DNA from: Pseudomonas sp. LBUM920
GTDB lineage: Bacteria; Pseudomonadota; Gammaproteobacteria; Pseudomonadales; Pseudomonadaceae
Assembly: GCF_003852315.1 (NCBI RefSeq)
Contig: NZ_CP027762.1
Span: 4,415,645-4,439,644, forward strand
DNA: 24,000 bases
Reading direction: 5' to 3'
A model generated the notes under the pieces. The model saw nothing but the letters and a program-made list of their open reading frames with translations. It made no database searches and had not been told where the DNA came from. The position numbers were made by a program, and so were the translations under genes. Below, in pieces: positions 17,147 through 19,760 of the stretch. The first letter of the stretch is position 1. Every line of letters begins with the position of its first letter.

Positions 17147-18538
17147 ATGAACGCTATCACTCACCAGACTCACGCCTTGTCGATCAACCCCGCCACTGGC
17201 GAAACAGTCGGCAGCTACCCTTACGAAACCGAGGCGCAGTTGGACGCGGCGCTTAATCGCGCCACTGAGGCCTTCCGCACCTGGCGCCGCCAACCAGTAA
17301 GCCAGCGCGCCGAGTTGTTGCTGGCCCTGGCCGCTGCGTTGCGTGAGCAAGCCGAAGACATGGCGCAGATGATCACCCTGGAAATGGGCAAACCCATCGC
17401 CCAGGCCCGTGCCGAAATCGAAAAATGCGCGCAACTCAGCGAATGGTATGCCGCCCACGGCCCGGCCATGCTCGCCCCGGAGCCGACGCTGGTGGACAAC
17501 GGCAGCGCCCAGATCGAATACCGCCCACTGGGCCCGATCCTCGCCGTCATGCCGTGGAACTTCCCGGTGTGGCAAGTGCTGCGCGGCGCCGTGCCGACCC
17601 TGCTCGCCGGCAACACCTACGTGCTCAAACATGCACCCAACGTGATGGGCAGTGCCTACCTGATGAAGGCGGCGTTTCAAAAAGCCGGCTTCGCCGATGG
17701 CCTGTTTGAAGTGGCCAACGTGACCAACGAAGGCGTGTCCAAGGCCATCGCCGACCCACGCATCGCCGCAGTCACCCTCACCGGCAGCGTGCGCGCCGGC
17801 GCCGCCATCGGCTCTCAGGCCGGCGCTGCGCTGAAGAAATGCGTGCTGGAACTGGGCGGCTCCGACCCGTTCATCGTGCTCAACGACGCCGACCTCGACG
17901 CCGCCGTCCAGGCCGCCGTGATCGGGCGTTTCCAGAACAGCGGCCAAGTCTGCGCTGCCGCCAAGCGCCTGATCATCGAAGAAGGTGTGGTGCAAGCCTT
18001 TACCGCCAAATTCCTCGCCGCCAGCCGCGCCCTGGTGATGGGCGACCCGACCGACACCAGCACCTACGTCGGCCCAATGGCCCGCTTCGACCTGCGCGAC
18101 GAACTGCACGGCCAGGTGCAGGCCACGTTGGAAGAAGGCGCAACCCTGCTGCTGGGCGGCAACAAAGTCGCCGGTGCCGGCAACTACTACGAACCGACCG
18201 TGCTGGCCGACGTCACCGACCAGATGACCTCGTTCAAACAGGAACTGTTCGGCCCCGTGGCCTCGATCATCACCGCCCGCGATGCCGACCACGCCGTGGC
18301 CCTGGCCAACGACAGCGAATTCGGCCTCACAGCAAGCATCTTCACCACCGACGCGGTGAAGGCACGGGATATCACCAACCAGCTGGAAACTGGCGCAGTA
18401 TTCGTCAACTCGTTCAGCGTGTCCGACCCGCGCGTAGCGTTTGGTGGAGTGAAAAAGAGTGGGTTCGGGCGCGAACTGTCCCACTTTGGCGTACGTGAAT
18501 TCTGCAACGCACAGACCGTATGGCTGGATCGCAAATAA
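17147..18538 (+). CDS. sad: NAD(P)+-dependent succinate-semialdehyde dehydrogenase (Sad/YneI-like aldehyde dehydrogenase)
   Basis: 463 aa, collinear with E. coli YneI as I recall it (SINPATGE, MPWNFPxWQV, LKKCVLELGGSDPFIVL, catalytic QVCAAAKR, EFGL, C-terminal FGGVKKSGFGRELSHFGxxEFCNxQTVW). Confidence 0.88.
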   Translation: MNAITHQTHALSINPATGETVGSYPYETEAQLDAALNRATEAFRTWRRQPVSQRAELLLALAAALREQAEDMAQMITLEMGKPIAQARAEIEKCAQLSEWYAAHGPAMLAPEPTLVDNGSAQIEYRPLGPILAVMPWNFPVWQVLRGAVPTLLAGNTYVLKHAPNVMGSAYLMKAAFQKAGFADGLFEVANVTNEGVSKAIADPRIAAVTLTGSVRAGAAIGSQAGAALKKCVLELGGSDPFIVLNDADLDAAVQAAVIGRFQNSGQVCAAAKRLIIEEGVVQAFTAKFLAASRALVMGDPTDTSTYVGPMARFDLRDELHGQVQATLEEGATLLLGGNKVAGAGNYYEPTVLADVTDQMTSFKQELFGPVASIITARDADHAVALANDSEFGLTASIFTTDAVKARDITNQLETGAVFVNSFSVSDPRVAFGGVKKSGFGRELSHFGVREFCNAQTVWLDRK

Positions 18539-19760
18539 AACAGGCAACACCCCATCAACTGTGGGAGCTGGCTTGCCTGCGATAGCGGTGCATCAGTGAC
18601 AACTCTTTGGCTGACACACTGCAATCGCAGGCAAGCCAGCTCCCACCTTTGATCTGCGGAGTGTGTGGCCGTGCGTAATTCTGCAACGCACAGACTGTAT
18701 GGCTGGATCGCAACTAAAACAGGCAACCCCCCATCAACTGTGGGAGCTGGCTTGCCTGCGATAGCGGTGGATCAGTGACAACTCTTTGGCTGACACACTG
18801 CAATCGCAGGCAAGCCAGCTCCCACCTTTGATCTTCGGTGTTTGTAGCCGCGCGTGAATTCTGCAACGCGCAGACTGTGTGGCTGGATCGCAAATAAACA
18901 GGCAACACCCTTCAACTGTGGGAGCTGGCTTGCCTGCAATAGCGGTGGATCAGTGACAACTCTTTGGCTGACACACTGCAATCGCAGGCAAGCCAGCTCC
19001 CACCTTTGATCTTCGGTGTTTGTAGCCGTGCGTGAATTCTGCAACGCACAGACCGTGTGGCTGGATCGCAAATAAAACAGGCAACACCCTTCAACGGTGG
19101 GAGCTGGCTTGCCTGCGATGGCGGTGGATCAGTGACAACTCTTTGGCTGACACACTGCAATCGCAGGCAAGCCAGCTCCCACCTTTGATCTGCGGTGTTT
19201 GTGGCCGTGCGTGAATTCTGCAACGCGCAGACCTTATGGCTGGATCGCAACTAAAACAGGCAACGCCCTCCAACTGTGGGAGCTGGCTTGCCTGCGATAG
19301 CGGTGCATCAGTAGGCAAATTTGTCGACTGACAGACCGCATTCGCGAGCAAGCCCGCTCCCACCTTTGATTTGCGGTGTTTGTGGCCGTGCGTGAATTCT
19401 GCAACGCGCAGACCGTGTGGCTGGATCGCAACTAAAACAGGCAACACCCTTCAACTGTGGGAGCTGGCTTGCCTGCGATAGCGGTGCATCAGTGACAACT
19501 CTTTGGCTGACACACTGCAATCGCAGGCAAGCCAGCTCCCACCTTTGATTTGCGGAGTGTGTGGCCGTGCGTGAATTCTGCAACGCACAGACCGTGTGGC
19601 CGGATCGCAAATAAAACAGGCAACACCCTTCAACTGTGGGAGCGGGCTTGCTCGCGAAGGCGGTGCTTCAGTTGGCAAATTTGTCGACCGACAGACTGCA
19701 TTCGCGAGCAAGCCCGCTCCCACTCAAGCCAGCTCCCACCTTTGATCTGCGGTGTTTGTG
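18494..19760. repeat. Seven-unit tandem array (178-181 bp period): sad 3'-end copy plus REPIN
   Basis: CGTGAATTCTGCAACGC recurs at 18494, 18674 (with a 1-nt deletion), 18853, 19031, 19210, 19391 and 19570. Each unit holds a copy of the last ~15 sad codons with stop, then AACAGGCAACACCC, a REPIN, and CTTTGATCTGCGGTGTTTGTGGCCGTG. REPINs lie at 18561-18646, 18740-18825, 18918-19003, 19097-19182, 19276-19363, 19457-19542 and 19636-19723, plus a REP remnant to 19739. Confidence 0.9.

Follow-up and report, generated by a model that had tools for sequence, protein, structure and literature searches.

In a stretch of 24,000 nucleotides from Pseudomonas sp. LBUM920 (NZ_CP027762.1, positions 4,415,645 to 4,439,644; the window, to which coordinates refer unless another locus is named), the space between a sad-like gene and a convergent yciI-like gene is filled with repeated DNA. 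This raises the question of what the element is, how it came about and whether its length matters to the two genes. The element was found to be a tandem array of 1.27 kb (1274 nt), whose seven units each combine the 3' end of sad with a hairpin-forming doublet of repetitive extragenic palindromic (REP) sequences, a so-called REPIN. The locus is very probably a REPIN-based minisatellite, i.e. a locus with a variable number of tandem repeats (VNTR), that began with one illegitimate tandem duplication and was then shaped by unequal homologous recombination and gene conversion.

Structure of the tandem array

In the window, Tandem Repeats Finder (TRF) reported a repeat at 18490-19723 with a period of 179 nt, 6.9 copies and 91% matches (score 1952). 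An 11-mer anchor from the sad tail, TTCTGCAACGC, occurs exactly seven times, at 18500, 18679, 18859, 19037, 19216, 19397 and 19576, with spacings of 179, 180, 178, 179, 181 and 179 nt. Dissection of the window sequence revealed that each unit is made up of a 51-nt sad tail, a spacer of 20-22 nt, a REPIN of 86-88 nt and a 3' flank of 20-21 nt. The repeat unit covers the intergenic sequence from sad to the yciI-like gene in full, together with the last 51 nt of sad (18488-18538), which represent the first and functional copy of the repeated tail. The array spans the whole gap between the two genes and ends 1 nt short of the stop codon of the yciI-like gene (TTA at 19763-19765).

Every REPIN consists of two inverted REPs (GTGGGAGC...GCTCCCAC). 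Type-A REPINs read GTGGGAGCTGGCTTGCCTGCGAT... and are present in units 1-4 and 6, the type-B REPIN of unit 7 reads GTGGGAGCGGGCTTGCTCGCGAA..., and unit 5 carries a chimera of both types (A/B). The features of the locus are as follows.

17147-18538, plus strand: sad-like coding sequence for an NAD(P)-dependent aldehyde/succinate-semialdehyde dehydrogenase, 463 aa (open reading frame (ORF); NCBIfam PRK13968)
18488-19761, no strand: whole array, seven head-to-tail units of 179, 180, 178, 179, 181, 179 and 198 nt
18488-18666, plus strand: unit 1; real sad tail 18488-18538, spacer 18539-18560, type-A REPIN 18561-18646, flank 18647-18666
18667-18846, plus strand: unit 2; pseudo-tail 18667-18717 (1-nt deletion in a GAA codon, K->N), type-A REPIN 18740-18825
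18847-19024, plus strand: unit 3; pseudo-tail 18847-18897, type-A REPIN 18918-19003
19025-19203, plus strand: unit 4; pseudo-tail 19025-19075, type-A REPIN 19097-19182
19204-19384, plus strand: unit 5; pseudo-tail 19204-19254 (V->L, K->N), chimeric REPIN 19276-19363 with type-A left arm and type-B loop and right arm
19385-19563, plus strand: unit 6; pseudo-tail 19385-19435 (K->N), type-A REPIN 19457-19542
19564-19761, plus strand: unit 7; pseudo-tail 19564-19614 (L->P), type-B REPIN 19636-19723, 16-nt REP-end duplication 19724-19739, native 3' flank to 19761
19763-20155, minus strand: convergent yciI-like gene, 130 aa (ORF, extendable to 20239; Pfam YCII PF03795, 3e-7, 31.3 bits)

With seven units in one register and type-A units that are 92-96% identical to each other, the array is an ordered tandem REPIN cluster. 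Unit 5 shares 86-90% and unit 7 77-83% identity with the other units. The flank of unit 7 is 38 nt long owing to an additional 16-nt duplication of the REP end, which was also reported by TRF as a period-16 repeat (19709-19739). A reading of these 16 nt as what is left of a type-A REP was given up, since several alleles have CAAGCCCGCTCCCAC here, which is type B; a tandemly duplicated REP end in which a single base is polymorphic is the better reading. The structure of unit 7 is the same as that of the single unit in alleles L088 and L084 (see below). A CRISPR array was also considered and rejected, since the whole unit is repeated, unique spacers are absent and the window contains no cas genes.

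The sequence-only reading of this DNA had described seven tandem composite units of about 179 bp, each with sad 3' end, REPIN and flank, that occupy the whole interval between the genes. Both statements agree with the TRF result, the anchor spacing and the dissection. It had further given the repeated part of the gene as the last ~15 codons: the coding tail is indeed amplified, but the homology starts at 18488, which corresponds to 16 codons.

The duplication joint

The approximately 20 nucleotides after the REP end (TTTGATCTGCGGTGTTTGTGG) are native intergenic sequence, since the same sequence follows the REP end in the single-unit alleles L084, L088 and L003 (P. edaphica RD25). In the single-unit alleles it reads CCTTTGATCTGCGGTG(T/C)TT(G/A)T(G/C)G ATTAGTC... 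and leads straight into the yciI-like stop codon. The novel joint, ...GTTTGTG followed by G(C/G)CGTGCGTGAA, was therefore placed where ~19760/19761 is linked to ~18488. Across the joint, the array reads ...GCGGTGTTTGTG followed by GCCGTGCGTGAATTC, or in some alleles ...GGTGTAGGTG followed by GGTGTGCGTGAATTC. At the breakpoint, the gene side is CACTTTGG followed by CGTACG and the flank side GTTTGTGG followed by ATTAG, with a shared microhomology of at most 3 nt (TGG). The joint lies at the same position in all units and all alleles. A junction at the motif CCCAC(C)TTTG, as proposed before, has to be abandoned, because the comparison with single-unit alleles puts this motif about 20 nt upstream of the true joint. 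A literature search for join points of REP-mediated duplications yielded nothing useful.

The constant joint bears on whether the REPINs could instead have arrived one by one, through repeated transposition into a single site mediated by a REP-associated tyrosine transposase (RAYT). REPINs are mobile, two types of them are present together in the array, and of 66 assessable species, 13 have a REPIN no more than 260 nt from the sad stop codon. However, 51 nt of sad, the spacer and the 3' flank recur along with the REPIN in every unit and in one register, which the transposition of an 86-nt hairpin would not copy, and neither units without tail and flank nor target-site signatures at the REPINs were seen. 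In addition, Y1-transposase (RAYT) models gave no match among the 19 longer ORFs scanned in positions 1-22831 of the window, although such a gene could lie elsewhere in the genome. Taken with the identical joint position, these observations make serial transposition highly improbable.

Copy number and unit order among conspecific strains

An exact look-up of the Sad protein of the window gave no match. The identical YciI-like protein is present on at least 24 public contigs, and through exact matches to its 130 aa, 10 further loci were found among the 24 contigs read. Their flanks are 98.7-99.7% identical to the window, and the loci are therefore of the same species. The host of the array is one species of the Pseudomonas fluorescens group, represented by many independent assemblies. 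The alleles with both ends of the array are listed below, where +16 denotes the 16-nt end duplication.

L088 (GCA_040750435.1): array of 198 nt, 1 unit; B+16
L090: array of 378 nt, 2 units; A, B+16
L089 (CP052856): array of 575 nt, 3 units; B+16, A, B
L082: array of 1097 nt, 6 units; window units 1, 2, 3/4 recombinant, 5, 6, 7
L086: array of 1113 nt, 6 units; B+16, A, A, A/B, A, B+16
L087: array of 1166 nt, at least 6 units; N gap inside
Window: array of 1274 nt, 7 units; A, A, A, A, A/B, A, B+16

Two unit types occur across these alleles, one of 179 nt with REPIN A and one of 197-198 nt with REPIN B and the 16-nt end duplication, and their order differs from allele to allele. The copy number at the same locus is 1, 2, 3, 6, 6, at least 6 and 7, as in a VNTR, with all alleles other than the three-unit one taken from short-read or metagenome assemblies. 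An A/B chimera is common to the window, L082 and L086, and L087 has a two-unit period of 376 nt (2.3 copies, 97% identity).

A search of the JGI metagenomes with the joint sequence returned two contigs, L082 and L081, the latter of which starts inside the array. L082 is 97.7% identical to the window over the longest BLAST alignment (4.6 kb). Its counterparts of window units 1, 2, 3/4, 5 and 6 share 98-99% identity with them and the counterpart of unit 7 shares 94%, while a single unit-3/unit-4 recombinant replaces window units 3 and 4.

Half of the conspecific contigs (5 of 10) end inside the array; L091 and L092 stop after at least four units each, and L093 and L081 hold at least two each. 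Such ends are expected of short-read assemblers at a real repeat. The contigs of the closest Sad relatives, L083 (P0001, 97% aa identity) and L085 (P0003, 94%), stop in the first REP and are uninformative. As a side observation, the end of L083 (GCA_977070775.1, labelled Pseudomonas putida) at ~2900-2926 consists of an Illumina adapter, GATCGGAAGAGCACA..., after the first 8 nt of the REP, which was left untrimmed in the deposited assembly.

An assembly artefact was considered, in which the assembler multiplied one sad-REPIN unit or wrongly connected it with REPINs of other loci. Repeats of ~180 bp are difficult for short reads, many public contigs break in or at the edge of the array, and L087 contains an N gap. 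On the other hand, all seven units have diagnostic variants of their own, which the independent metagenome contig L082 shows in an unchanged order, and multi-unit arrays are found in at least eight independent assemblies. One of these, CP052856, belongs to Pseudomonas sp. ADAK22, the complete genome of which was assembled from Nanopore reads (201x, mean read 4.9 kb) and polished with Illumina data (PMC7303412), so that at least one multi-unit allele is long-read-based. Furthermore, the pseudo-tail is unique to the sad locus and cannot have come from REPINs elsewhere. Assembler collapse cannot interconvert B-first and A-first alleles, so that the polymorphism is real at least in part. An artefact is thus very unlikely.

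Long reads had been named beforehand as the check on copy number, and ADAK22 holds three units, not one. The suggestion that the array might be a recombination hotspot is likewise borne out by conspecific assemblies with 1 to 7 units in reshuffled order.

Proposed origin and evolution of the array

The founding step would have been a single illegitimate tandem duplication that, with a microhomology of no more than 3 nt, joined ~19760/1 beside the yciI-like stop codon to codon G449 of sad (~18488). One such event is assumed because the position of the joint is common to all alleles. The resulting direct homology of 180 bp would permit RecA-type unequal crossing-over or replication slippage, in registers of one and two units, along with gene conversion, so that the array could expand, contract and be reshuffled. 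The 3/4 recombinant of L082, the shared A/B chimera, the 376-nt period of L087 and the scrambled order of A and B units are what would be expected of unequal recombination and gene conversion. Paralogous units diverge by 4-8%, compared to 1-2% for orthologous units between strains, which makes the array older than the strain split.

In this process the first copy would keep sad whole and the right boundary would stay outside the yciI-like gene, leaving both genes intact in every length variant; the length polymorphism is for this reason probably (nearly) neutral. A breakpoint within the coding sequence would be tolerated because a tandem duplication always leaves one intact copy across its left boundary, and we infer that the co-amplified coding tail merely reflects where the first breakpoint fell.

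Several points weigh against this account. Most of the copy numbers come from short-read and metagenome assemblies, in which arrays can collapse, and only the three-unit allele is known to be long-read-based. The difference of six versus seven units between L082 and the window, which is due to the 3/4 recombinant, is exactly what assembler collapse would also yield. Two REPIN types in one array are not explained by simple duplication and need conversion from other REPINs, import of an allele or replacement of a REPIN. The single-unit alleles (L088, and L084 of a neighbouring species) may be either ancestral or collapsed arrays. Finally, the presumed neutrality is read from the variability.

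The repeated sad tails

The 51-nt tail of each unit corresponds to the sad codons G449-K463 and the stop codon TAA. The real tail encodes GVREFCNAQTVWLDRK followed by the stop in all seven conspecific alleles and in L084, i.e. its protein sequence is invariant. Among the 18 distinct internal tail copies, one frameshift was found alongside the substitutions K->N, L->P, V->L, T->P, W->L, F->C, F->L, G->A and V->A/G. The unit lengths are mostly not multiples of three, and the tail copies are consequently not in a single reading frame. The view that the array adds six in-register copies of the tail is not supported: unit 2 is frameshifted, K->N is present in units 2, 5 and 6, V->L in unit 5 and L->P in unit 7, and the frames differ.

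Internal tails, which specify altered C-termini (K463N, L460P and V459L among them) and have without exception retained the TAA stop, might be taken for silent cassettes that diversify the Sad C-terminus by recombination, and the many ORFs of 40-118 aa across the units for genes of small peptides, or the array for a source of a small RNA. None of the variants has moved into the gene, since the expressed tail is constant in the alleles listed above. The ORFs are by-products of a palindrome that is repeated on both strands, and neither a promoter-like site nor a match to an RNA family was found. These ideas can practically be discounted, and the internal copies are, as judged from their substitutions, decaying pseudo-tails and not a reservoir in use.

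Two further candidates were dropped. The tail variants in the window by codon position (4 third, 1 first, 1 second) gave no evidence of selection (binomial calculated by hand, p of about 0.1). A 6-bp stem (GTGCGT/ACGCAC) in the pseudo-tails seemed compensatory in unit 3 of the window and is disrupted in unit 3 of L082.

REPINs in other Pseudomonas species and elsewhere in the window

To place the array among related genomes, species representatives of GTDB were scanned with the Sad protein, resulting in 80 Pseudomonas loci with 74-95% aa identity. The sad tail is single-copy in every locus in which it could be recognised, and in 95 related loci it never occurred away from the sad 3' end. Tandem REPIN arrays were found immediately 3' of sad in the following three other species.

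Pseudomonas sp. TH43 (L078), 5424-6471: period 135, 7.8 copies
Pseudomonas sp. Choline-02u-1 (L053), 5408-5922: period 129, 4.0 copies
Isolate p11.F9 (L054), 5417-5768: period 134, 2.6 copies

These arrays are independent, their REP variants and linkers differ, and the sad tail is contained in none of them. Three of the four long-period arrays detected by TRF in the 80 species loci are located at the intergenic site 3' of sad, which looks like a hotspot for REPIN arrays.

REPIN-only matches were found at unrelated positions in the related loci L007, L009, L013, L017, L020, L024, L012, L014 and L015. Together with one more copy at 16064-16173 in the window, these identify a dispersed, multi-copy REP family, as far as the 24-kb window and the related loci are concerned.

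Lone REPINs at 16064-16173 and 15642-15782 flank an ORF of 69 aa (15853-16062) between an aminotransferase gene and ptrR; one of the two is type-A-like and the other belongs to a third REP type (GGCGAGCGGGCTTGCCCCGCG). A third-type REP is also contained in an element of ~140 nt in L003 (P. edaphica RD25, 5440-5580), which has 18-nt terminal inverted repeats (CATAGGTATCTACACAAC), is nested in a type-A REPIN downstream of sad and looks like an insertion of a MITE (a miniature transposable element with inverted repeats) into the REPIN.

Predicted hairpins and possible function

The inverted arms of the REPINs are 42-44 nt long, 82-88% complementary and 0-14 nt apart in every unit. According to minimum-free-energy prediction, both strands of each unit form a hairpin of ~35 bp. 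The plus-strand RNA of unit 6 was predicted to fold with -92.3 kcal/mol compared to -59.8 +/- 4.1 kcal/mol for shuffled sequences (z = -8.0), the minus-strand unit with -91.4 kcal/mol (z = -7.0) and the whole array with -700.6 kcal/mol.

A consensus scan of 18300-20300 for intrinsic terminators (G+C-rich stem and U tract) found none in the array; the single match is on the minus strand within sad, and fewer matches were obtained than expected from shuffled sequences. A consensus scan for promoter-like sites found none in the array either. Rfam 15 gave no match in 18400-19800, with four tRNAs and a cobalamin riboswitch as the only matches of the window. Between the convergent genes, no strong structure other than the REPIN is present.

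REP elements and bacterial interspersed mosaic elements (BIMEs) of E. coli are known for the stabilisation of mRNA upstream of them, for the attenuation of transcription and as binding sites of gyrase and IHF. By this analogy, and because the REPIN is the sole strong structure between the genes, a role of the array in 3'-end protection or termination is plausible. The predicted hairpins may add to the protection of mRNA 3' ends or to the insulation of the convergent genes, roughly in proportion to copy number.

The array could also be a selected functional element, which might terminate or insulate transcription in both directions through its many hairpins, stabilise mRNA 3' ends or serve as a BIME-like site for gyrase or IHF, and the copy number of which tunes expression of sad and/or the yciI-like gene as a contingency locus. 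The seven very stable hairpins predicted on both strands, the lack of a canonical terminator in the scan and the independent tandem arrays 3' of sad in other species (7.8, 4 and 2.6 copies) speak for such a function. In contrast, the hairpins have no U tract and no Rfam match, and strains with ~99% identical flanks hold 1-7 copies with a scrambled unit order, so that no length is maintained. A selected function of this kind is improbable, and a minisatellite that changes length by recombination remains the preferred reading.

A more specific version would make the locus a regulatory contingency VNTR. Here the number of hairpins would set the insulation or mRNA life of sad versus the cluster of yciI-like, KaiC-like and histidine kinase genes, the co-amplified tail would serve as homology for frequent and harmless changes in length, and the recurrence of arrays 3' of sad would be due to selection. 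We regard this as a shade less probable still. If it is true that copy number tunes the convergent genes, tandem REPIN clusters would gain a function, which was suspected but never demonstrated by Bertels and Rainey.

Neighbouring genes and other features of the window

The Sad protein of the window scores 775 bits with the succinate-semialdehyde dehydrogenase model PRK13968 of NCBIfam, which is under the equivalog cut-off of 855 bits. The gene sad functions in the catabolism of putrescine and gamma-aminobutyric acid (GABA) and adjoins ptrR. Just downstream of the yciI-like gene and on the same strand, a gene for a KaiC-like double ATPase (503 aa, PF06745, 1e-65) is followed by a gene for a HisKA/HATPase histidine kinase (20291-22831, minus strand). 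This cluster is kept in all conspecific loci.

Elsewhere in the window, further features were observed.

2259-5675, minus strand: three consecutive ORFs (427, 337 and 331 aa) that match nothing in Pfam; the first and second contain stretches paralogous to each other (2527-2832 and 3901-4206, 73-77% identity)
9077-9637, plus strand: ORF of 186 aa with matches to AID/APOBEC-like deaminases (SNAD4 PF18750, 4e-11; NAD1; APOBEC_N), adjoining a tRNA array and gltX
9728-10238, minus strand: tandem duplication of 280 nt, 97% identical, giving two copies of a tRNA-Glu(TTC) and tRNA-Ala(GGC) pair
23329-23521, plus strand: cobalamin riboswitch (Rfam RF00174, 104.8 bits)

The AID/APOBEC-like deaminase domain is unusual for a Pseudomonas chromosome.

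Significance and comparison with known systems

The locus provides a clean natural example of the way in which an intergenic region with a REPIN becomes a hypervariable minisatellite, as the founding joint, two unit types, recombinants and a series of 1-7 units are all present in public data. Possible uses are in the typing of strains of the host species and as a test bed for the dynamics of REPIN arrays, in which recA-dependent and RAYT-dependent change could be distinguished. For annotation and assembly it is a warning, since contigs break at the array and the pseudo-tails and palindromes give rise to dozens of spurious ORFs.

The closest known counterparts are the 16 ordered tandem REPIN clusters of P. 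fluorescens SBW25, the largest of which contains four REPINs over >700 bp (Bertels and Rainey, 2011; PMC3116915). They likewise consist of head-to-tail repeats of 5' flank, REPIN and shorter 3' flank, are extragenic, and belong to the same host group and the same REP superfamily (GTGGGAGC...GCTCCCAC-type). For their formation, a second mechanism other than transposition was invoked (PMC3116915). The sad array differs from these clusters in its size (seven REPINs in 1.27 kb), in a 5' flank that extends 51 nt into a coding sequence, in the mixture of two REPIN variants and in the documented variation of copy number between strains (1-7). The impression of rarity given by the sequence-only reading, according to which REPINs are normally dispersed singly or in small clusters, is overstated: tandem clusters that include flanks are the form in which REPINs of SBW25 most often make up higher-order arrangements (PMC3116915), and independent arrays with as many as 7.8 REPINs sit directly after sad in other Pseudomonas species.

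The array also resembles the minisatellites formed by BIMEs, or palindromic units (PU), in E. coli (Gilson et al., 1991; Touzain et al., 2010, PMC2884548), with alternating REPs, regular spacing, tandem arrangement, variation between strains and a typical location at gene 3' ends. Most of the minisatellites detected between E. coli genomes are PU/REP elements (PMC2884548). Unlike in the sad array, the linkers of BIMEs are defined extragenic motifs and not a gene fragment, and both REP family and host are unrelated. The REP found here, GTGGGAGC(T/G)GGCTTGC..., is of the Pseudomonas type and not a Y/Z-type unit of the E. coli PU consensus, and the linker is a fragment of sad with native intergenic sequence. 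On these sequence features, the array is BIME-like in geometry only.

With bacterial VNTR loci as used in multilocus VNTR analysis (MLVA), the array shares intergenic units of ~100-200 bp, copy-number polymorphism among near-identical strains and change by slippage or unequal recombination. It differs from the usual loci of this kind by a unit that is dominated by the hairpin of a mobile element, by the pseudogenised gene end and by two unit types in mosaic order. The proposed origin is similar to the microhomology-mediated tandem duplication described in a preprint (bioRxiv 10.64898/2026.02.28.708716), where a segment between points that share a few bases is duplicated and subsequently expanded. 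At sad, the microhomology does not exceed 3 nt, later mutation has altered the exact joint, and the founding mechanism is inferred. The array is a large and well-documented member of a class that has already been described, it involves no new mechanism, and its sole peculiarity is the co-amplified coding tail.

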